Shown in pieces: positions 38,486-48,611 of a stretch of DNA of 64,000 nucleotides. The notes below the pieces were generated by a model. It was not told the origin of the DNA. It did not search any database and saw only the letters and a program-made list of their open reading frames with translations. The DNA comes from Candidatus Uhrbacteria bacterium (GTDB lineage: Bacteria > Patescibacteriota > Patescibacteriia > JACQRZ01): contig JACPMJ010000005.1 in NCBI GenBank assembly GCA_016186045.1, forward strand, positions 7,143 through 71,142, given 5' to 3'. Numbering within the stretch: the first letter of the stretch is position 1; every line of letters starts with the position of its first letter. A program made the position numbers and the translations under genes.

Positions 38486-38590
38486 TACATAGTATACCCT
38501 ATTTTTATAATCTTCACAAAATAAAAAAAGACTTATTGCATTTTGCGATAGGTCTTTGAAATTTTTTTTGCGGAATTACGGGGATGATCC

Positions 38591-38650
38591 CTACCTTACC
38601 ATGCCTTGCCCCGCCGGACCAAACCATACCATACCGGACCTCACCGCACC
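38591..38650 (-). repeat. GGY-NN pentamer array B (12 units), downstream of the RAMP-like gene; putative guide RNA
   Basis: Minus strand: GGTGC GGTGA GGTCC GGTAT GGTAT GGTTT GGTCC GGCGG GGCAA GGCAT GGTAA GGTAG. Confidence 0.85.
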
Positions 38651-38715
38651 TTAGATAAAATATGAGGACGAAATATCTTTCCTAAATATTCCGCCCTCTG
38701 AACTATGAGTGACGC

Positions 38716-39381
38716 CTATGCGGCGCTCTCTTCGGTGTCGCTCTCACTTTCACTTGGCAAGACCAGAGCCTCGAACACGAGATCCTTTTCCTCCTCGTAC
38801 TTGAGGACGTCGAACTTGGTGACGATGAACTTGCCGAATCGCGGCCGATAGTCGCCAATGCCATTGTGTTGGCCTGCGCGGACGAGAATGCTCTGAAGCA
38901 CCTCTACCGGCAAGATGCGTTCGTCCAAAACGGAGAGCGTGAATTCCGTGCACCACTCCTCCAAGCGAGGCCGTGCGCGAAGCACACGGGCGGTACCGAT
39001 ACGTGCCGGACGCTTGTCGATGGCGTAGTCGTAGAGCTTCTCTCCCTTGAGATTCGTGATTCCCGAATACTCTGGAAAGACGCCTACGCCGCCCTTCACC
39101 GGATCCTTGAAGGTCTTCTTTCCCTGCCCCTTCACTTGGAAGGAGCTTGCCGCCTTTACCATGGTTTGGTAGACGTGCTCTCCGGGAACGCAGAGCTGGC
39201 CCTTCTTGTCGCCATTCGCCGGGTCAAGGCGATAGGCTCCCTGCTCCGCCTCCACCTCCGGGAGTGGCGGACCTGTCTTTCTGGACTTGACCGTGCCCTC
39301 CAGCTCGGCCGTGGCCTCCATGGAGAACTTGTGCATGAGAAGAGGGGCAGATCCTTGGATTTTCACTGCGACTTCGTACAT
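38716..39381 (-). CDS. Stand-alone RAMP/Cas7-like protein
   Basis: N-terminal strand VKIQGSAPLLMH, LCVPGEHV (cf. IPGSS) and C-terminal Gly-rich loop GIGDYRPRFGKF. AAGGAGGT RBS. The CDS call is firm; the fold is inferred. Confidence 0.7.
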   Translation of the reverse strand: MYEVAVKIQGSAPLLMHKFSMEATAELEGTVKSRKTGPPLPEVEAEQGAYRLDPANGDKKGQLCVPGEHVYQTMVKAASSFQVKGQGKKTFKDPVKGGVGVFPEYSGITNLKGEKLYDYAIDKRPARIGTARVLRARPRLEEWCTEFTLSVLDERILPVEVLQSILVRAGQHNGIGDYRPRFGKFIVTKFDVLKYEEEKDLVFEALVLPSESESDTEESAA

Positions 39382-39422
39382 CTCTCGTACCTCCTTACCT
39401 TAAATTGAGAGAGTTTTCGAAT

Positions 39423-39508
39423 GGGCCCTACCTTACCGTGCCTTACCACGCCTTACCACGCCTAACCTCGCCACGCCCAGCCAGACCGCAACCCCACCAG
39501 ACCAAACC
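39423..39508 (-). repeat. GGY-NN pentamer array A (17 units, one of 6 nt), upstream of the RAMP-like gene; putative guide RNA
   Basis: Minus strand: GGTTT GGTCT GGTGG GGTTGC GGTCT GGCTG GGCGT GGCGA GGTTA GGCGT GGTAA GGCGT GGTAA GGCAC GGTAA GGTAG GGCCC. Confidence 0.85.
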
Positions 39509-39575
39509 CTATATGAGTATAAAGCGGGCTGGTAAGCTGATTTCCTTATAAAAAGGATACATTGAGGACGAGCTT

Positions 39576-39667: not shown

Positions 39668-41908
39668 TTAGGAGAGACTGAATACGAGATTATCCAGACT
39701 TCCAAGTAGGAACGGAGTATCACTCAGTGCGCACGCGGCGATTTTTTCGCACGTGAGTGAGGTGAGTGATGCCGTGTATCTTTCTTTGGACGGTACGGGA
39801 CTTTCCTTCAACTCCTGCTGTGCCTCCTCGCACAATGGAAGGTGAATGGCGAGATGCTCGCCGCCAAAGGAGATACCGAAGGCGCTGGCGTCAGAAGGAT
39901 TCAGCCGAATCGCTTCACCCCAATCTTCCCTCCGGGAGAGATGCATACGCATGGGAACGTATATGTCGGAATACGTCGCAAGGACCATGTGGTGATCCAT
40001 GTATGCCGACATCATCTCGAGGATATACGGTTCGAGTACTCCGCCTTCGAGCAAAACACCCGCCTCCTTTACGGTCATTGCTCGGCCGTCGGCGACAATC
40101 GTACTCATGATGATCGGTTTGAGAAGTTCAGTCGCGATAGTGGTCGGGATTCCCAGCATCTTTTTTTGAAGAGAGGGATCCGGCACACACACCGCGGTTG
40201 CGGAATAGTCTACCCGCCGCTCATAGAAGTCTCTCGCGGCATTATCGATCTCCATATCGATACTCTGAAGAAGACGGCCAAATGAACCCTGGAGTGTGGT
40301 ATTGCGCATCAGCGTTTCTACCGCCTCCTGTACCATTTGGCACTCGTTTCTGATGATGATCTCTGGGGCACCCATCTCCATCAGACGACTGACACGATTA
40401 TTCCTACCGATAATGCGTCGATACAGATCGTTGAGATCTGATGTTGCGAAAGTTTTTGCATCGTATCGGACCATCGGTCGGAGGTTGGTGGGCAGAACCG
40501 GGAGATTGCGTATAAGGAAGCGTGAGATATCAACCCCTCGCTCCATGCACACGCTCTCGAGTGCCGCCACTCCCCAGTCGCTTGGTTCGGCATCGTCATC
40601 ATCATCCACTATGGATCGTTTGTAATCGATGACAGCGAGAATGCCCTCGATATCTCCGATGCCGACTTGTGCAATAGTTTGTGCACATTGCAGCTTGAGC
40701 CATGGATGGACAACCGGAATCGCAAGTTTGATATGACCAAACCTGCTATTCGGTGCCAAGTGTGTATCAACTTGGACGCCGCACTTCATGCACGTGATAC
40801 CCTTATGCCTGATGCCCTCGAGTCTGCCACAACTGCACTTCAGATCTCGGCCGTTTCCGAAGATCGCCTCGCAGAAGAGACCTTCGTGTTCTGGCTTCAA
40901 TGTTTTGTAGCTGATGGTCTCTGGACGTTTTACCTCGCCGTGTGACTGCTTGACGATCTGCGCATCGGTTATGCGCATGATATGTAGAGCACCATCTTCA
41001 ACTTTCGTTGAGAAACCGCACCCAACCATCAATGTTGCAAGTCGATGTGCGGAGTGAGTCGGTGGTGTTTCCAATGCGGGGACGGGATTTCGGAGAAGCA
41101 ATGCTTCATATGCTGTTGCTCGCGCGCGTATGCCGCTTGATTTGACCATAGCCATTTCCACAGCGTTCTGTACGTATCCGAGGTGCGCAAACTTTTGGAT
41201 GTTGACCTTTTGTCCTGGATTTGGATGTTCCGATAGGGGCTGTTGAGTGACTAGGCTATACCGTCCAGTCGAACGTCCAGCCAACTTGTCTTCCATGCGC
41301 CGCGTTATTTTCGTGAGTTTCACGGCACGAAATGCAGGACCATCCGAATCCGGAACTGGAAGTCCCTTGAGGATATCAGCGTCTGGATGGACGAGAATAT
41401 CCGTACCAAAGGAAAAGCATCCCTTGGCGCTGAACCCTGCTACGACCAAGGTATGGCCGTGGTTATCATTAAGGACATCGCCGACAGCCAGCTTGCGCTG
41501 GATGAGGAGGTCGATGGTTACGACCTTACCCTTGTTGAAATCCTTGATCTCTACGTTTGTGACCAACGCCTCATCCCGCTGTTTTGCGATCGCGACGATG
41601 GGTTGTGTCTGGGCAAGCGTTGCGGCGAGTACCGAGCGCTGTGCGACTTTCGTACCGACCATCACTACGCCATTCTTATCCAGATTCGCACCCGGAAAGT
41701 ACCCCTCGAAGTCTGCGGGTTTTGCGCTTTTTGCCGGCGCATCGATAGAGAATGGTGACTGGCGCTCCAGAAGCGCGGTGTCAAACCGCCCCTGATCGCG
41801 CACCTCCTCTGATACGATGCAGGCGTTGCCGGTCAGCTGCGGATATGTCCGCAGAAGGTTTTTTCCGGCTATTCGGAGTCTGAGTCTTGATTTCCCATCC
41901 AGGATCAT
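39668..41908 (-). CDS. Degenerate RNA polymerase beta(C-term)-beta'(N-term) fusion protein
   Basis: RpoB-like RSTGRYSLVTQQPL. RpoC-like GEVKRPETISYKTLKPEHEGLFCEAIFG, C4 zinc finger, ATSDLNDLYRRIIGRNNR and RVDYS. NADFDGD is replaced by GISFGGE. Confidence 0.85.
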   Translation of the reverse strand: MILDGKSRLRLRIAGKNLLRTYPQLTGNACIVSEEVRDQGRFDTALLERQSPFSIDAPAKSAKPADFEGYFPGANLDKNGVVMVGTKVAQRSVLAATLAQTQPIVAIAKQRDEALVTNVEIKDFNKGKVVTIDLLIQRKLAVGDVLNDNHGHTLVVAGFSAKGCFSFGTDILVHPDADILKGLPVPDSDGPAFRAVKLTKITRRMEDKLAGRSTGRYSLVTQQPLSEHPNPGQKVNIQKFAHLGYVQNAVEMAMVKSSGIRARATAYEALLLRNPVPALETPPTHSAHRLATLMVGCGFSTKVEDGALHIMRITDAQIVKQSHGEVKRPETISYKTLKPEHEGLFCEAIFGNGRDLKCSCGRLEGIRHKGITCMKCGVQVDTHLAPNSRFGHIKLAIPVVHPWLKLQCAQTIAQVGIGDIEGILAVIDYKRSIVDDDDDAEPSDWGVAALESVCMERGVDISRFLIRNLPVLPTNLRPMVRYDAKTFATSDLNDLYRRIIGRNNRVSRLMEMGAPEIIIRNECQMVQEAVETLMRNTTLQGSFGRLLQSIDMEIDNAARDFYERRVDYSATAVCVPDPSLQKKMLGIPTTIATELLKPIIMSTIVADGRAMTVKEAGVLLEGGVLEPYILEMMSAYMDHHMVLATYSDIYVPMRMHLSRREDWGEAIRLNPSDASAFGISFGGEHLAIHLPLCEEAQQELKESPVPSKERYTASLTSLTCEKIAACALSDTPFLLGSLDNLVFSLS

Positions 41909-42022
41909 CGGATTCCTCCTTGCATCCCGTCTTCCGACAGGTAAAGCCCGGTTTTCCCGAGCGTGTCAAAGAACCGATAGTAATGTACATGCATGAATTA
42001 TATATTGTCAAGGAGCTGTACT

Positions 42023-42152
42023 GAGGCCGTTGCAAAACTCAGCTAAGCATGTCATTCCCGCGAAGGCGGGAATCCAGTTCTTTTAATTTAAGAAGAATTC
42101 TGGATCCCCGATCAGGTCGGGGATGACAATCGGAGGGTTTTGCAACGGTCTC
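42023..42152. mobile_element. MITE with IS5-family-like terminal inverted repeats enclosing a REP-like hairpin
   Basis: GAGGCCGTTGCAAAACTC / GGGTTTTGCAACGGTCTC ends. Flanking direct repeat TGTCAAGGAGCTGTAC at 42006-42021 and 42158-42173. Confidence 0.6.
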
Positions 42153-42195
42153 TGTACTGTCAAGGAGCTGTACAGCGCGAGTACATAGGTAACAC

Positions 42196-42507
42196 TTACT
42201 TGTCGCCAAAGCGCTTTTTATATCGCGCAGTAATCTCATCCACGAGATACTTTAAGAAAGTATCTTCTCTTACCGTTTTTAGTACCGGCTCCTCGAGAAT
42301 ATCGAGCAGAAATACTCCTGAGGCGACGAGTGTGAAGCAGATGCCGCATTCATCCGCATGCATGTCTCTCGGCTTTCCTGTACTTACGGCGATCGCCGTC
42401 CGAAGAATTTGTACGTCGCTGAAATGCGGATTTTCTCCGACCGATCGGATTCCGATCGAACGAAGAATCATGATCATCATCTCCTCACCCATCTGATTTT
42501 TCTTCAC
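42196..42507 (-). CDS. Hypothetical protein
   Basis: GTG start after an AAGGAGG RBS, within ORF 42196..42672. Confidence 0.55.
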   Translation of the reverse strand: MKKNQMGEEMMIMILRSIGIRSVGENPHFSDVQILRTAIAVSTGKPRDMHADECGICFTLVASGVFLLDILEEPVLKTVREDTFLKYLVDEITARYKKRFGDK

Positions 42508-42701
42508 ATTTCCTCCTTCGAGAATTCTTTTTAATCCCATCCATGTGCGCACACAGATATATGGATTAGCCAAAAATCCTCTCTTCAGGAAATCTACTAT
42601 ACATAGTAGTGATTTCCTGGAGAGAAGGCGCGAAGGTTTCTCTATGTCCTTCGCGCAAATATTCCTGAGCACCTATCAGTCAAGAACTACTCGTTCTCCT
42701 A

Positions 42702-44108
42702 CTATGGCACGAGGCGCTTGTAGCGACGATTGATATATCGCCGCATGAATCCGGAAACTTGCGCCTCCGCATGGAACTTAGCGTGCCCGATACTCATACG
42801 ACGCCCATCACTGACGAAGCAGTTCAGGAAGTCCTGATCCGTCATCGTGGTAACCACCTTGAGTCGCTCATCGTCAAGGATTGCCTTGAATTCTGGCACG
42901 AGTGCGAGTCGTGACGGAATTTTCAGGTCATTCCCAAGATCAACGGCGTTCCCGAATAGTTTATTGGGATCTACTCTACCGAGTCGCGCGGCCATGGCTC
43001 TGAAGTGAGTCATAATCTGACTCCTGTAGCGAGTCTTATACGGCTCTTGCACGAATACCGCCTCGGGCACGTGGCGATAGTCATGGATGAAAGCAGCATG
43101 CGCCAGCGCATTAGCGATAACAGTATCTGCTGTCGCCAACTCGCGAGCCACAAGCTCCTCCATTCGCCCCGTGAATTCATTCGGAAAGAGATACACAAGA
43201 CGCTGAAATGTTTTGCGATCGTCCCCTTTTGGCACACCCGGAAGAGCATCGAAGAAAGCGTTGATGATATCCCTCCTCGTCTCTTCGTCATAGTCGAGGT
43301 ACCAGCACCGCTGGCTGACGACGCTGATATCCCCGCTCCAATAGAGGTACCGTCGCGACGGAACCTCCATGCCACGCAGGAGCTCCTCCACGATCAGATA
43401 GATCAGCTGATCGCCCTCCAAGATACGATTCTTTTGGGCTTCGTTCTGGAAAGCGAAATGCCGACTTGCATAATCGATCACCTCTCGAATGAGCGCTGGC
43501 TCGATCCGTCCATCCGATGTGAATGCCTTGGACCGGAACTCGATCACGTCGCGAATGTCCGCAACTGGAATAGGAATGAACCCGACGTGTCCGTCCCGCC
43601 GTTTCTCCCGTTGGGCGATCGCGGCAGCCGCTTGCTTCCGACGAAGTGACCCTGTGGCGTACTGGACAATGAAATCAACCACCGGAAAGGACCGCTCGAT
43701 CTGAACGGGTTCCGTCCTATTCTCGTTGACAGGAAGGTCAATCACTGTGCGTCCGAGGCACGCCGCCGAGAAAATCGGCGGGATGCCAGCCGCTCTGAAG
43801 TCGCGTGCGCGCTGTTCGATCTTGTCTAGCAGCGCTGACGATGCCATCTGTTCACCAGCTAAAACGAGTTTTAGGTGATCGTAATGTGGGCCGTAAAAAT
43901 ATCCCTCACACATCACGAGAAAGCGCCGCGCTCGCTGACACGCAGATTCATATTCCCGTAAGTCAACGAATGTATATACATTGTCTCGCTTACGGTAGAG
44001 GCGCTTGATACCCGCCTGATTGAATACCTCTTCAGAGATACTTCGAACACTTAGGTTACCAGCAAGCTGGCTTATCTGAGCTGCCAATTGAGAAGTGCTC
44101 CGGGCCAT
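42702..44108 (-). CDS. Hypothetical protein
   Basis: Long ORF with the ATG at 44108 after AAGGAGG. No recognised motif. Confidence 0.75.
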   Translation of the reverse strand: MARSTSQLAAQISQLAGNLSVRSISEEVFNQAGIKRLYRKRDNVYTFVDLREYESACQRARRFLVMCEGYFYGPHYDHLKLVLAGEQMASSALLDKIEQRARDFRAAGIPPIFSAACLGRTVIDLPVNENRTEPVQIERSFPVVDFIVQYATGSLRRKQAAAAIAQREKRRDGHVGFIPIPVADIRDVIEFRSKAFTSDGRIEPALIREVIDYASRHFAFQNEAQKNRILEGDQLIYLIVEELLRGMEVPSRRYLYWSGDISVVSQRCWYLDYDEETRRDIINAFFDALPGVPKGDDRKTFQRLVYLFPNEFTGRMEELVARELATADTVIANALAHAAFIHDYRHVPEAVFVQEPYKTRYRSQIMTHFRAMAARLGRVDPNKLFGNAVDLGNDLKIPSRLALVPEFKAILDDERLKVVTTMTDQDFLNCFVSDGRRMSIGHAKFHAEAQVSGFMRRYINRRYKRLVP

Positions 44109-44359
44109 TGCTGGCCTCCTTTCAAATTTCAATGAAATTTCAATGAACTTTCCCCTCACCTTCAAAACACCACTAATTGATGTCCTGAAGAGAAAGTGGG
44201 AGCAAATCAGTACGAATACTATCTACTCCCAAATTACTTCAACCCCGTATCTTTTCACGCGCCGGCGATTATCCCGGCAAACTTCGCGACGGCCCCTTCG
44301 ACAAGGACGCTCGTCACCTCCTCGTCCATGCAGTCATGAATATACTCCCTTCTTCTTGG

Positions 44360-45055
44360 CTATACTGACGTTGGAACGTAAAACTCAAGAATGTCGATAG
44401 TTCGTTCGATGCCGTCTCGTATTGTGTCTATCATGGAGACAAGTTCCTCTATAGATCGATACGCGAGCGGTGGTGCTTCTGGAAGAACCAGCGACGGTTC
44501 GCTCGACCCTTGTCCGAAGAGCTGTGAGATAATCCTCCTACCATTACTTGGTAGGGTACGCGCCTCTCGAAGTTGATTCTCGTACTCCCACCGAAGATCC
44601 CGGATCAAATTTCTGTACTCAATACGAGCCAGATCCTCTACCCAGACTTTATCCTCCTTAACCTCAATGATCATCTCACCTTTTAGACGTTCTGGCCCGA
44701 GCAGATATCTATCACTCTCTTTGTCATACCGACAACCCACATAATTTGCTATGGAGCCTAAGTATAGAGCTCTATGGCCTGCCCAACGAATCCGTATGAC
44801 GGTTCTGCTAAAAGCAATGTAGAGTGATCCCTCCATATTGTCTCCTTGGGCATGAAAGAGTTGACCACGTTCATGAACGATCCCCATGTTGGGGTTTACC
44901 TTATGTCCCATCCTCCAATGTCCAACGGAAACAAGACCGCCAATCTTTTGGAGTTTCTTGGTCTCCGAGAGTACATCGAGTACATGCATCAGCTCGTTAT
45001 ACTTTTCAGTGAGATTACTCACAGACTCCTGAACGGCCACGTTACAAATTTCCAT
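44360..45055 (-). CDS. Hypothetical protein
   Basis: 231-aa ORF with a GGAG RBS. Confidence 0.65.
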   Translation of the reverse strand: MEICNVAVQESVSNLTEKYNELMHVLDVLSETKKLQKIGGLVSVGHWRMGHKVNPNMGIVHERGQLFHAQGDNMEGSLYIAFSRTVIRIRWAGHRALYLGSIANYVGCRYDKESDRYLLGPERLKGEMIIEVKEDKVWVEDLARIEYRNLIRDLRWEYENQLREARTLPSNGRRIISQLFGQGSSEPSLVLPEAPPLAYRSIEELVSMIDTIRDGIERTIDILEFYVPTSV

Positions 45056-45420: not shown

Positions 45421-46185
45421 ATGTATCAAACATTACTCACACAACTCGGACTCGCAGAAAAAGAGGCGACCATCTATGAAACGCTCGTAGAAAAGGGCTC
45501 ATTGACTGCTGGACGCCTACTGAAAGAACTTCCCTACAAACGAGGAGATATGTATTACCTTCTTTCACGATTAAAGGAAAAGGGATTAGTGACAGATGTC
45601 CTTTCCAAAAAGGGAGTTGCAGTATTTACAGCTGCGAATCCCACAACTCTTGAATCACTCGCAGAAAAAGTTCTTGAAAAGGCTCAGCAGATAAAAACAG
45701 GTCTGGATGCCGCACTTCCAAACCTGAAATCTCTATACAATCTCGCAATGGAGAAACCTGGCATGCGCTTCTATGAAGGTGAGGCGGGAATATGGAAACT
45801 ACTCAATGACACTCTTGACTCAAAAACCGAACTTCTCTTTTTGGGTGATCACGACGCAATTAACACTCATATTCCGACACTCAATAAAGATTATGTACTT
45901 AAAAGAAAAAAACGACACATCAAAAAGCGTCTTATCCAATTTGATACGCCATCCGCTCGCGCATTTGCACGTACCGGTGATGAATTCACCGAGGTTCGAC
46001 TTATTGCCACGGATGCGTCAAACATCCGAAGTTTCATGCATATCTATGATAACAAGGTATCGTATGTAACGTTTTTGGAAACCGCATTCATCGGCGTTCT
46101 TATTGAAGATCCAATGTTCTATCAACTTCAACGAGTAATGTTTGAATATATGTGGAAAACTGCCACACGTTTTACGAATTCCTAA
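45421..46185 (+). CDS. TrmB-family transcriptional regulator
   Basis: LGLAEKEATIYETL wHTH, RFYEGEAG and IYDNKVSY. Confidence 0.85.
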   Translation: MYQTLLTQLGLAEKEATIYETLVEKGSLTAGRLLKELPYKRGDMYYLLSRLKEKGLVTDVLSKKGVAVFTAANPTTLESLAEKVLEKAQQIKTGLDAALPNLKSLYNLAMEKPGMRFYEGEAGIWKLLNDTLDSKTELLFLGDHDAINTHIPTLNKDYVLKRKKRHIKKRLIQFDTPSARAFARTGDEFTEVRLIATDASNIRSFMHIYDNKVSYVTFLETAFIGVLIEDPMFYQLQRVMFEYMWKTATRFTNS

Positions 46186-48611
46186 CCACGATACTCAAAT
46201 ACAAGTTGAGCGTGCTCTGCGTTTTTTGTGTATCGAGAAAGAACGTAGCCGTGTGCCAATGGGGCGAATATCTCCTGCATTATACGGGGATCGAATAGAT
46301 CACGCGTGTCTACTTCAAATGCGATTATCGATTTTTTTTCGGCAATTTGCTCTGATATGTCGAGCAGTGAAAAAGAAAGGAGCGGCGACGGAAATTCCGG
46401 CTTTGATCTTGATTTGATTTGCCGATCAATAATAAGAACGCCGTCCTGCTCTTCTTTATCATAATGGAAACTAACTCCCTCGAATTTTGCCTGCTCGATA
46501 TAGGAGGCGGCAATATCTTTCCACACCGATGTCTTTCCACGAATTAATGCGTCTTTTGACTCCTTCTCCAGCGCCTGCATAATAATAGAAGGATAGAATC
46601 CCGACCCTCTGTATGCAGTCTCGAAAAACAACGCGCTCCAAAATTTTTCATGCGGTGCCGTGTCGGTGAACACCGCCGATCCGATAAGAGGTTTCGGAGT
46701 TTTATCTTCTCGCAAAATCACATAAAAACGGCTTTTATTTTCCGGATCATTTACCCGCGCGTCCAGCTCTGCAAGAAGGCGGTCAACTTTTGCATTGTCG
46801 CCCCACTCTTTGCGCAGACTTTTCTCGTACCCCGCATGCACCATTCTCGTTATTTCTTTATGGGTGCGCATTTCTTTGGAGGTAAACTCATGCAAGTGGA
46901 ATAGTTTTACGTCTTCTAGGTCGATATGCTCCCCTTTCAGTGCCGCAACCCCCGCGCAGATCATAGACGCCTGCTCGTCAATCATTTCCAGGTCTGCTAA
47001 CAACTCTTTTTGATTCTTTTTTTTCACTGCTCCATGCAATAATTCTTTGCCGCGAGCAAGGAGATTGACAGTGAATGCACGCACAACTGGTTCTGCTTTC
47101 GGGCCTCCTCCAAAATTTTCTCGAAGATAATCAGCCGCGCGGTAAGCTGTCTGGGCGATTTTCGCGTATTTCTGAAAGAGTGGTGCTGCCGCATTTCCAA
47201 ATCGCCTCCCGATATCAATAAGTTTTGCGCCAAATTCTAGATCTCCTTCAGTTGCAAGAAGCGAAGTAAGCGCGTCATTGCCAAATTGTTTTACAAAATC
47301 TCTCATGGAAAGAGCGTGCATAATATCTTGCTGACTAAAAAAACTTAAAAAATTACGTTGCACCCACAATGGCTGATGATTTAATGTAATACCGAAATGA
47401 TTTTCAATAATCTCGCGCATCTGCAGACACATAAGATACGAATATTCATCGTATGACGCGGGATCAAAAGAAGCGGCTCCAGGATGCAGTGCAGTAAAAA
47501 AATCCTCCTTCGCTAATGGGTAATGGGGAGAATGGCCCCTCTTCTCTGCGAAGGAAAGAATATTTACTTCTTCCCCAGGGAATAAGTGCGATATATAGTT
47601 TCGAAGCCACACTTCCAAATGAGGGGACATCATGATTGCGGCAGTGGCATTGGCTTTCGCTGCGTTCAGCGCTTCGTAATCCTCATCAGTAGCAAAAAAA
47701 ATCGCAGACATTCTCCCTGTTTTCTGATATTCAGCGATATAGTGCGGCGCGAGCTGATAATAGTGTGCGTTTGGATTGTTATCTTTTCCAATAAGATAAC
47801 CACTCTCATTTTCTTCTTTGAAATGTTTTACCCGATAACGTTCAAAAGAATCGATGTGACACCTTTTGCCACCGATCTCCTTACCCTCGATAAAATAACC
47901 AAGCTGCAAATAGCGACCATAAATAAGAAAATTGCTATTTCTATGACGCGCCATAATATCGGCAATTCCGTAAAATTTCTTAGCACACTCGCTTTGGATA
48001 TCATGTCTGTCTTGGGGTAGAGATGCAATCAAGGCGCTGCTATAATGTTCAAAAAAATCGAGAATCTTATGGGAAAGCACATTGGCATACGGCCGATTAA
48101 TGAGCTGCAGTAATATAAAACCCTTTGATGCAGACGGCGATAACGAGTCGAACGGATATAATACTTCCTTGTTAACCTGCAAAAGCTCACCAGATGCTTT
48201 ATTATCTGCTCGATATTGGGACGCTACTCCAAGAAGTGTAAGGAGAGAAAGAGAGAGTTTTGTATTGGGTTGTATTTGATTCGCGATTTCAGCCTCAAGG
48301 CTCCTGATAAGCGCGGGGCGTTCTTGTTCGGGTGCATATTCAAGAGTCGCGCGGACATTACGGATAATTTCGAAAGTTTCGCTTCCATCCTGATCGATAA
48401 AAAAAATAGAGAAATCTTTTGGCAGCAATTTCATAGCATCCTCCTCCGTCGGCACCTCCTGTATCAGCTCGCAGAGCGCAATTAGCTCCTGCACGGCATG
48501 CTTAGGGAGATCGAATCCCTCTTTTCTAAATCTTGTAAATGTCTCTATTAGTTCCTGCCGAATCGACGGAGGCGTTTCTGGTAATCTTTGTGATTCGTGT
48601 TCTGATCGCAT
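46182..48611 (-). CDS. Large hypothetical protein with a possible C-terminal GNAT-like domain
   Basis: 809-aa ORF with ...ALFFETAYRGSGFY..IMQAL.... Confidence 0.7.
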   Translation of the reverse strand: MRSEHESQRLPETPPSIRQELIETFTRFRKEGFDLPKHAVQELIALCELIQEVPTEEDAMKLLPKDFSIFFIDQDGSETFEIIRNVRATLEYAPEQERPALIRSLEAEIANQIQPNTKLSLSLLTLLGVASQYRADNKASGELLQVNKEVLYPFDSLSPSASKGFILLQLINRPYANVLSHKILDFFEHYSSALIASLPQDRHDIQSECAKKFYGIADIMARHRNSNFLIYGRYLQLGYFIEGKEIGGKRCHIDSFERYRVKHFKEENESGYLIGKDNNPNAHYYQLAPHYIAEYQKTGRMSAIFFATDEDYEALNAAKANATAAIMMSPHLEVWLRNYISHLFPGEEVNILSFAEKRGHSPHYPLAKEDFFTALHPGAASFDPASYDEYSYLMCLQMREIIENHFGITLNHQPLWVQRNFLSFFSQQDIMHALSMRDFVKQFGNDALTSLLATEGDLEFGAKLIDIGRRFGNAAAPLFQKYAKIAQTAYRAADYLRENFGGGPKAEPVVRAFTVNLLARGKELLHGAVKKKNQKELLADLEMIDEQASMICAGVAALKGEHIDLEDVKLFHLHEFTSKEMRTHKEITRMVHAGYEKSLRKEWGDNAKVDRLLAELDARVNDPENKSRFYVILREDKTPKPLIGSAVFTDTAPHEKFWSALFFETAYRGSGFYPSIIMQALEKESKDALIRGKTSVWKDIAASYIEQAKFEGVSFHYDKEEQDGVLIIDRQIKSRSKPEFPSPLLSFSLLDISEQIAEKKSIIAFEVDTRDLFDPRIMQEIFAPLAHGYVLSRYTKNAEHAQLVFEYRG

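Follow-up and report, generated by a model that had tools for sequence, protein, structure and literature searches.

A window of 64,000 nucleotides from Candidatus Uhrbacteria bacterium (assembly GCA_016186045.1, contig JACPMJ010000005.1, positions 7,143 to 71,142 of the forward strand) is the whole stretch of DNA analysed here, and positions refer to it unless another locus is named. At 39668..41908, on the minus strand, it carries a gene whose product, P0001, is a fusion of three pieces of RNA polymerase (RNAP): the C-terminal third of RpoB, residues 10-486 of RpoC, and the C-terminal RpoC helices that complete the clamp (residues are mapped in E. coli numbering). Judged by their sequences, P0001 and its relatives form a catalytically dead family in which the outer docking surfaces are selectively kept. 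As far as searched, this family is real, selected and undescribed in the literature covered. We tentatively propose that P0001 is a decoy for proteins that dock on RNAP, probably phage inhibitors, antiterminators or sigma factors, a reading in which we place slightly less belief than doubt.

Architecture of the fusion protein

An earlier note on this DNA had reported an uninterrupted open reading frame (ORF) of 746 amino acids (aa) at this place, and we find all 746 codons in an unbroken frame on single unitigs. The Pfam domains Rpb2_6, Rpb1_1 and Rpb1_2 are recognized on the product. The note's description as an RpoB C-terminus joined to an RpoC N-terminus holds for these two pieces, but it overlooked a third piece from the RpoC C-terminus (aa ~703-746), the flap, and both double-psi barrels.

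Piece 1 (aa 1-305; 40994..41908, on the minus strand as are all features of the gene) is equivalent by alignment to beta ~805-1342 with internal deletions. It comprises the body of the flap, the beta double-psi barrel, switch 3 and the beta clamp helices. The switch-3 segment RSTGRYSLVTQQPL (aa 212-225; 41234..41275) aligns to residues 1014-1027 of the host's own RpoB. At 41447..41482 the catalytic-barrel motif of beta is degenerate: GDVLNDNHGHTL is aligned with GDKMAGRHGNKG of the host RpoB, and the equivalents of K1065, R1069 and K1073 are lost.

Piece 2 (aa 306-702; 39803..40993) is equivalent by alignment to beta' 10-486 and holds the zipper, the zinc-binding domain, the lid, the clamp helices, a degenerate switch 2, the dock and the beta' double-psi barrel; the names switch 2, switch 3, lid, zipper and dock are used in their customary sense. 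The zinc-binding cysteines C358, C360, C373 and C376 (40781..40837) correspond to C70, C72, C85 and C88 of E. coli. The lid and clamp helices (40304..40486) carry R502, E522 and A529, the counterparts of R275, E295 and A302, and P0001 also contains SDLNDLYRRIIGRNNR. In the catalytic loop (aa 678-684; 39857..39877), GISFGGE of P0001 aligns with NADFDGD of the host's own RpoC. Besides switch 2, the part of the fork and switch region that faces RNA and DNA is degenerate.

Piece 3 (aa 703-746; 39671..39802), joined to piece 2 after a deletion of about 830 residues, consists of degenerate RpoC C-terminal helices (beta' ~1320-1355). This assignment was made from profile matches: when a profile of the family tail was run against 168 canonical RpoC, 147 of them yielded a domain, and in 133 of these the best one lies on the C-terminal segment. 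A profile-profile comparison of the tail with the RpoC C-terminus by hhalign gives a probability of 81.7 (E 1e-5). The assignment is supported by structural alignments of the P0001 model, which reach the C-terminal end of beta'/Rpb1 chains. Apart from these helices, nothing beyond residue ~490 of RpoC was matched in the family, and bridge helix and trigger loop are thus absent. No partner gene with a bridge helix or trigger loop was seen in the family loci, nor in the host genome beyond the canonical rpoBC.

The host genome (928 kb, 91.6% complete; G000 below) encodes ordinary RpoB and RpoC which group with named Patescibacteria. The earlier note had wished to see these canonical genes elsewhere in the genome, and they lie with intact motifs on contig C15, separate from the P0001 gene. 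P0001 shares 29-37% identity with them.

Loss of the active centre and retention of docking surfaces

Residue retention was counted over 40 family rows of full length, which have a median identity of 31% and at most 55%; the short paralogs, an interrupted copy and four fragments do not enter this count. The three aspartates of NADFDGD are kept together in 0/40 rows and are all missing in 28/40; P0001 has S680, G682 and E684 in their place. The active-centre residues of beta have fared similarly (E813 0/40, D814 3/40, K1065 0/40, K1073 4/40, H1237 0/40), as have beta' R425, N458 and D460 (1/40 each), while beta W1276 and beta' K334 are found in no row. Basic residues that face the DNA are mostly lost (K334 0/40, R339 3/40, R352 13/40, R1269 10/40), and R337 is deleted; P0001 has N at the position of R99. 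The loss of catalysis, which the earlier note had read from the replaced motifs, is borne out by the alignments to the host's own subunits and to the 40 rows.

A different picture emerges on the outer surfaces. All four zinc cysteines are present in 38/40 rows, and the sigma-binding clamp residues in 24 to 34 of them (R275 31/40, E295 34/40, A302 24/40). The flap-tip helix is present in 35/40 rows, with E898/F906 kept in 31/40, and zipper Y46 is kept in 26/40. This is in good agreement with the selective retention of interaction surfaces that the earlier note had suspected.

Integrity of the gene and its flanking signals

In two of four sequencing runs, all from one study and possibly the source samples, a single unitig covers the whole P0001 ORF together with the downstream vipr gene, with zero differing letters, and coverage of the gene is even in all four runs. 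A chimeric assembly within the ORF, named in the earlier note as a possible objection, is ruled out by these unitigs. No unitig crosses the repeats at ~38.46-38.50 kb and 42.05-42.12 kb, which leaves the assembly and the similar depth as the grounds for joining the gene to the chromosome on either side. In each of the four runs, a MITE-like element (miniature inverted-repeat transposable element; window 42003-42173) is covered to a very high depth.

The gene had also been credited with its own promoter, ribosome-binding site and terminator. An AGGAGG (41915-41920, minus strand) precedes the start codon ATG by 6 nt, and a sigma70-type promoter-like site, TTGACA-18-TACATT (42011-41982, minus strand, 10/12 consensus positions), and an intrinsic-terminator-like hairpin with T run (39655-39632, minus strand) are present as well, the latter separating the P0001 gene from vipr. 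The -35 element falls inside a repeat beside the MITE. Promoter-like sites (11 against 7.6 expected) and terminator-like sites (7 against 5.6) are not enriched over shuffled sequence, and we therefore regard both signals as consensus matches only.

Extent and distribution of the family

A HMMER search over 1.84 billion representative proteins gave 6,367 matches. Among the best 150 of these, which makes the family size a lower bound, 32 are full-length proteins with the P0001 architecture (query included) and six are fragments; all lack the four canonical motifs tested. The homologs sharing the fusion that the earlier note had called for thus exist. Word-indexed protein searches were dominated by canonical RpoC; seven of their matches with the same architecture (P0002, P0003, P0010, P0024, P0047, P0104, P0120) bear canonical motifs and were set aside as read-throughs or contig-end pieces of ordinary rpoBC. 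Two clusters with organism names, Paceibacterota and Sandaracinus/Polyangiaceae, were found among 30 proteins looked up.

A DNA pattern run over 185,579 genomes gave 107 matches, ten of which match the family profile: Saccharibacteria, two Paceibacterota, Falkowbacteria, Planctomycetota, Bradymonadaceae, and four myxobacterial-type bins, one being an RpoB-only derivative. The sources of the 40 family rows are Patescibacteria, Myxococcota, Planctomycetota and unlabelled metagenomes. Of the 13 other carrier genomes, nine yielded a canonical rpoC; the remaining four are draft bins.

Family copies are rare stand-alone chromosomal genes. The gene occurs in none of 60 relatives, in 1 of 400 Patescibacteria, in at least 2 of 300 genomes of the phylum of the Myxococcales bin, and in none of 300 of the phylum of the planctomycete carrier, 12-15 candidates per genome being scored in both 300-genome surveys. 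Family-level relatives of two carriers are likewise without it (0/15 and 0/40), and no close DNA pair was obtained. Pattern-limited searches found no member in IMG/VR (23+1 viral loci), among 40 of 42 phage records of INPHARED, or among 30 of 67 PLSDB rows, all canonical-like; a metagenome scan limited in the same way gave one locus, which does not match the family profile.

Selection and origin

The P0001 gene is old, and purifying selection acts on the protein that it encodes, because its silent sites agree with those of the host rpoBC at chance level, second codon positions are alike, and no neutral simulation preserved the frame. Between P0001 and the host's own rpoBC, 19 of 89 fourfold-degenerate sites are identical where 24 are expected, i.e., they are saturated, and second codon positions are the most alike (identity 0.57-0.77). 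In neutral simulations at 50% identity, 0/200 kept the frame open, with a mean of 18.6 stops. A recent duplication from the host's own rpoBC is ruled out by the silent-site saturation. The open frame at saturated silent sites, together with the existence of a family of the same architecture, also agrees with the earlier note's view that the gene is no decaying pseudogene.

In a tree of the RpoB part, all 41 family rows lie on one side of a branch that separates them from 18 canonical RpoB, with a support of 99 (Shimodaira-Hasegawa-like approximate likelihood ratio test, SH-aLRT). In contrast, in the tree of zinc-finger and lid/clamp columns 15 family rows join planctomycete-type RpoC (98) and another 14 join RpoC of the myxobacterial type (97), and a single family clade is rejected for these columns (p of the approximately unbiased test, p-AU, 7.8e-5). 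The zinc-finger/clamp trees are quick IQ-TREE trees from which six gappy rows were omitted. A FastTree of the whole RpoC part sets the family apart from canonical rows, contrary to the segment tree, and either result can be distorted by long branches. The planctomycete copy shows an excess of silent identity to its host rpoC in the zinc-finger and clamp segments (23/39 against 15.6 expected, and 25/34 against 14.5), and no such excess in the RpoB part. A single origin with later overwriting from host rpoC is the best explanation of these findings; alternatively, origins may have been independent, with long-branch attraction in the RpoB tree.

Fold and predicted sigma complex

The AlphaFold2 model of P0001 is confident (predicted local distance difference test, pLDDT, 88.4; predicted template modelling score, pTM, 0.85), and two double-psi beta-barrels are present in the model and in its structural matches to DPBB domains. 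Its top Foldseek matches are beta' chains. Among 48,161 solved chains searched, rank 1 is 3QQC_A (Z 24.2, root-mean-square deviation 3.6, 280 aligned residues), tied within one Z unit with the M. tuberculosis beta' (Z 23.8), where the alignment extends up to residue 1257. Residues 43-137 of the model resemble two isolated beta-flap domains, 3TBI_B and 3WOE_A (Z 9.6 and 9.5), which were solved with the phage proteins gp33 and gp39.

The earlier note had suggested modelling with sigma70. A predicted complex of P0001 with RpoD 158-350 scores 0.78, against 0.24 for the best control, on a scale whose mark is reached by 116/157 solved pairs and 2/215 mismatched pairs. The RpoD partner was taken from a genome of the same family, standing in for that of G000. 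In the G000 assembly itself RpoD was not found, at 91.6% completeness, and one extracytoplasmic function (ECF) sigma factor is the only one seen; this is probably an assembly gap, since RpoD is present in 4/4 same-family genomes. Contacts agree between runs by at least 89%, and the partner reaches a pLDDT of at least 81. The predicted interface has the lid and clamp helices as its core and also takes in switch 3 and the zipper. Of 23 invariant residues in this interface P0001 keeps 18, whereas it keeps 85 of the 173 located outside it (Fisher p=0.013). According to PMC8321222, R275, E295 and A302 of the clamp are required to form the holoenzyme.

Proposed function

Many regulators, and the proteins by which phages take over a cell, have RNAP as their main target. 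We suppose that the folded dead shell, which comprises the flap, the clamp, the zinc finger and the two barrels, would capture proteins that otherwise dock on the host polymerase, probably phage-made inhibitors, antiterminators or sigma factors, and would thereby titrate them off that enzyme. The zinc-finger/clamp face would be refreshed from host rpoC by recombination, keeping the mimic matched, and host sigma or NusG would inevitably be bound to some extent as well. Here the stable fold and the sigma-binding face are predictions, whereas binding in cells, the invader ligands and the refreshing from rpoC are inferences.

A decoy appears preferable to a sink for the host's own sigma or NusG because paralogs keep varied subsets of surfaces, because some members have added an alpha C-terminal domain (alpha-CTD) or the N-terminal peptide of beta', because their occurrence is patchy and changes fast, and because the copies track the host. 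The varied subsets point to several ligands rather than to sigma alone, and the patchy, fast-changing distribution fits that of conflict genes. According to PMC3985653, the phage protein P7 binds the beta' N-terminal peptide together with the flap tip, and the host RpoC peptide in the linkers of family members is the homolog of this peptide. In a wider form, for which we see some room but clearly more doubt, dead shells, clamp-only minis and alpha-CTD fusions would be modular decoys that intercept phage transcription factors, their face overwritten from rpoC. In Patescibacteria, foreign-type copies might even target phages or transcription factors belonging to the host cell on which these bacteria live.

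Several observations weigh against a decoy that is kept matched to its host. The flap-tip helix is deleted in P0001, and with it a main site for phage factors is gone. R275, E295 and A302 occur jointly in just 17/40 rows, P0001 included. The predicted sigma complex shows likeness and is possibly memorised, the pair being a textbook one of which similar complexes were solved many times. Over the whole family, the contrast between interface and rest is non-significant for all invariant columns (0.69 against 0.56, p=0.16) and modest for polar columns (0.72 against 0.48, p=0.036), with a rest that includes the active centre. Among seven copy-host pairs, one shows a clear silent-site signal, one a marginal signal (p=0.017) and five none. 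P0001 and the other Patescibacteria copies are no closer to their own host RpoC than to foreign RpoC, and P0001 has long branches and falls into different subgroups in the RpoB and RpoC-segment trees; because of these three features, P0001 is probably an acquired copy that was not refreshed. Two genome copies are interrupted, by an in-frame stop in G425 and a frameshift in G062. The neighbours are generally not defence genes, and PADLOC 2.0 assigned no family to P0001 or to five neighbours.

Instead of intercepting invaders, the protein could be directed at its own host, stripping housekeeping or alternative sigma, or NusG, from the core in the manner of an anti-sigma factor and so slowing transcription, during dormancy, development or abortive infection. 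We consider this unlikely but worth keeping in mind, as R275/E295/A302 are intact in P0001 and in the clamp-only paralogs L158 and L234, the clamp face is matched to the host, and a sigma complex is predicted. However, L157 and L161, which have no clamp helices, and the RpoB-only L163 remain intact ORFs, and a housekeeping regulator would be expected to be inherited, yet the relatives surveyed (0/60, 0/15, 0/40) do not have the gene. A cognate sigma gene or regulator is adjacent in none of 19 loci, with one sigma-like gene 5.8 kb away (the RpoD profile used missed its ECF control, and ECF was covered by one query). The shell together with sigma might otherwise bind and melt promoters and thereby block them as a dead holoenzyme, alpha-CTDs adding contacts to UP elements. 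A fragment of beta' 1-314 with a sigma fragment does melt extended -10 promoters (Young 2004 as cited in PMC4057154), and both the retention of zipper Y46 (26/40) and the alpha-CTD fusions would suit such a role; the loss of basic residues that face the DNA in switch 2 and along the template channel (K334, R339, R352, R1269) and the lack of a conserved target or regulator nearby make it improbable.

That the gene is a mobile, slowly decaying rpoBC remnant, kept by recent transfer only, would explain the rare singletons, the long branches and the two interrupted copies. It is quite improbable in view of silent sites at chance in an open frame, alike second positions, 0/200 open neutral simulations, boundaries shared by about 40 members at 31% median identity, and a confident fold. 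Fidaxomicin, myxopyronin, corallopyronin and ripostatin are drugs that bind the switch region. A sponge for such compounds would suit myxobacteria, as the three fused pieces meet at the clamp base and Myxococcota hold several copies, but precisely the pocket-lining switch-2 and beta residues are the most degenerate (K334 and W1276 0/40, R337 deleted; N at the R99 position in P0001), and copies generally do not lie beside biosynthetic clusters, L162 being 1.7 kb from polyketide-like genes. We judge this highly improbable. Hardly to be expected is, finally, that P0001 serves as an accessory (vap) protein of VIPR, the RNA-guided silencing system encoded next to it. P0001 is adjacent to the phrog_4652 gene on the same strand and unitig, and VIPR silences transcription according to its description (10.64898/2026.04.26.720920), but the main text of this description, which names DNA-binding proteins, nucleases and helicases where the accessory genes (vap1-6) are concerned, leaves RNA polymerase unmentioned; a terminator-like hairpin and a separate promoter-like site lie between the two genes, and the linkage is not repeated elsewhere, as described below. 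A decoy for RNAP-docking proteins remains the reading that we favour.

Comparison with known systems

RpoB and RpoC (TIGR02013, TIGR02386) are the direct source of P0001, with the same fold and 30-37% identity to the host's own subunits. Unlike these, the family has no lobe, protrusion, bridge helix, trigger loop, jaw or catalytic residues and stands as an extra copy beside intact rpoBC; its members have ~750-950 aa against ~2,400-2,900 for RpoB/RpoC and the natural fusions PRK09603 and PRK14844. P0001 stays far below the curated cut-offs (282 against 963.5 bits for TIGR02386, 33 against 801 for TIGR02013, 257 against 5372 for the fusion models).

A close parallel is the rClamp of Pyrococcus furiosus (3QQC), an engineered fusion of the three clamp-forming parts, which according to PMC3094117 is soluble and binds Spt4/5 stoichiometrically. 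It has the same pieces in the same order as P0001 (B C-terminus, A' N-terminus, A'' C-terminus), but is an archaeal laboratory construct without the flap and the two barrels of P0001. Since rClamp folds and binds, such a fusion can fold and bind a NusG-family factor. The phage polymerases Arash gp206 (Salmonella phage) and D181 0267 (Vibrio phage) share the beta-C/beta'-N junction on one chain. In contrast to the P0001 family, they keep GDK..G.HGNKG and DYDGD, have a partner chain and continue into beta' where the family jumps to the beta' C-terminus; they score 196-234 bits on the family profile, far below bacterial subunits. A viral ESM Atlas cluster of 911 aa (TM 0.68) is likely this Arash/D181 group. 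PMC8195603 describes a different RNAP-associated system made of GreA/B-C plus PIN.

Anti-sigma factors of the Rsd and AsiA type and phage sponge or decoy proteins act by stoichiometric sequestration and have small, unrelated folds. They share the proposed mode of action, but in P0001 the binder would be the polymerase's own surface. No natural decoy built from RNA polymerase itself turned up in the literature covered. There is no dedicated family for P0001 in Pfam, NCBIfam, PHROGs or PADLOC, nor among the large ESM Atlas clusters (small clusters not searched), and no description in the full text of open-licence PMC and bioRxiv.

If a decoy function is true, it would be a new anti-phage or regulatory strategy in which gene conversion matches a mimic to an essential gene. 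Whatever the function, these natural single-chain clamp-flap modules, predicted to be stable, could serve as baits for pulling down unknown RNAP-binding proteins, and in structural work on the sigma, NusG and phage factors of uncultured phyla. In phylogenomics, family members score as rpoC paralogs.

Genomic context

The gene sits in an island, as gap lies directly beside tsf in two of seven relatives' loci and the two are separated here by 10.5 kb including the P0001 gene. Family neighbours are unrelated from locus to locus. Downstream of P0001, on the same strand and unitig, the window holds a 221-aa phrog_4652 (Vipr-like) gene (38584-39511) flanked by 5-nt-periodic repeats; this is the RAMP/array unit to which the earlier note had linked P0001. 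A promoter-like site of this gene (39605-39576, 11/12 consensus positions) lies behind the terminator-like hairpin. The linkage did not hold: a Vipr homolog is found in none of the 18 other family loci, and the phrog_4652 gene in two of 14 carrier genomes, in the second on another contig. The adjacency is best read as two cargo genes of one island.

Four orphan ORFs of 158, 487, 231 and 809 aa (42196-45055 and 46182-48611) have no Pfam or PADLOC match, and a TrmB-type regulator (45421-46185) has four paralogous matches in the genome.

Variants and further observations

Within the family, two of 40 rows are without clamp helices (L157, L161), two are without the zinc finger and five without the flap tip. 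An alpha-CTD is fused in 5/32 members, and five distinct myxobacterial-type proteins carry a host RpoC N-terminal peptide in a linker. Myxobacterial carriers hold two or three variants per genome. Clamp-only genes of 213-292 aa occur in three genomes of the myxobacterial phylum (L158:7415-8293, L233:8083-8724, L234:7743-8603); they consist of zipper, a zinc finger that is present or not, lid and clamp helices. The gene at L158 overlaps the stop of a Ser/Thr kinase within a vWA-FHA-kinase run. A Polyangiales bin has an RpoB-only pseudo-subunit of 686 aa (L163:524-2584) with degenerate N-terminal, middle, flap and barrel pieces, the catalytic lysines being gone.

In a 9.07-Mb single-contig genome of the myxobacterial phylum, the family gene takes the form of two genes whose stop and start overlap in GTGA (L231:7333-10121, G734:C1); the second of them opens with the N-terminal peptide of the host RpoC and has an alpha-CTD at its end. 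The Patescibacteria copy with one in-frame stop (L168:7017-9587, G425:C5) has a planctomycete-like zinc finger (61/86, against 45-47/84 for Patescibacteria RpoC).

A CxxC...CxxC zinc-ribbon insert lies between flap and beta barrel in P0123-P0126, P0128, P0133, P0138, P0163, P0255 and P0262; it is absent from P0001 and from nine host RpoB checked. P0163 also has a Sel1 repeat ahead of its alpha-CTD, and P0236 a 400-aa N-terminal extension that does not match canonical RpoB. A second match in G427 is a contig-end fragment. One Patescibacteria bin with 3% contamination contains two full rpoBC sets (G375:C8 and C20), probably owing to binning. A deltaproteobacterial RpoB at L073:3-2651 reads GDILADRHGNKG, with the first catalytic-barrel lysine replaced, and is otherwise full-looking.

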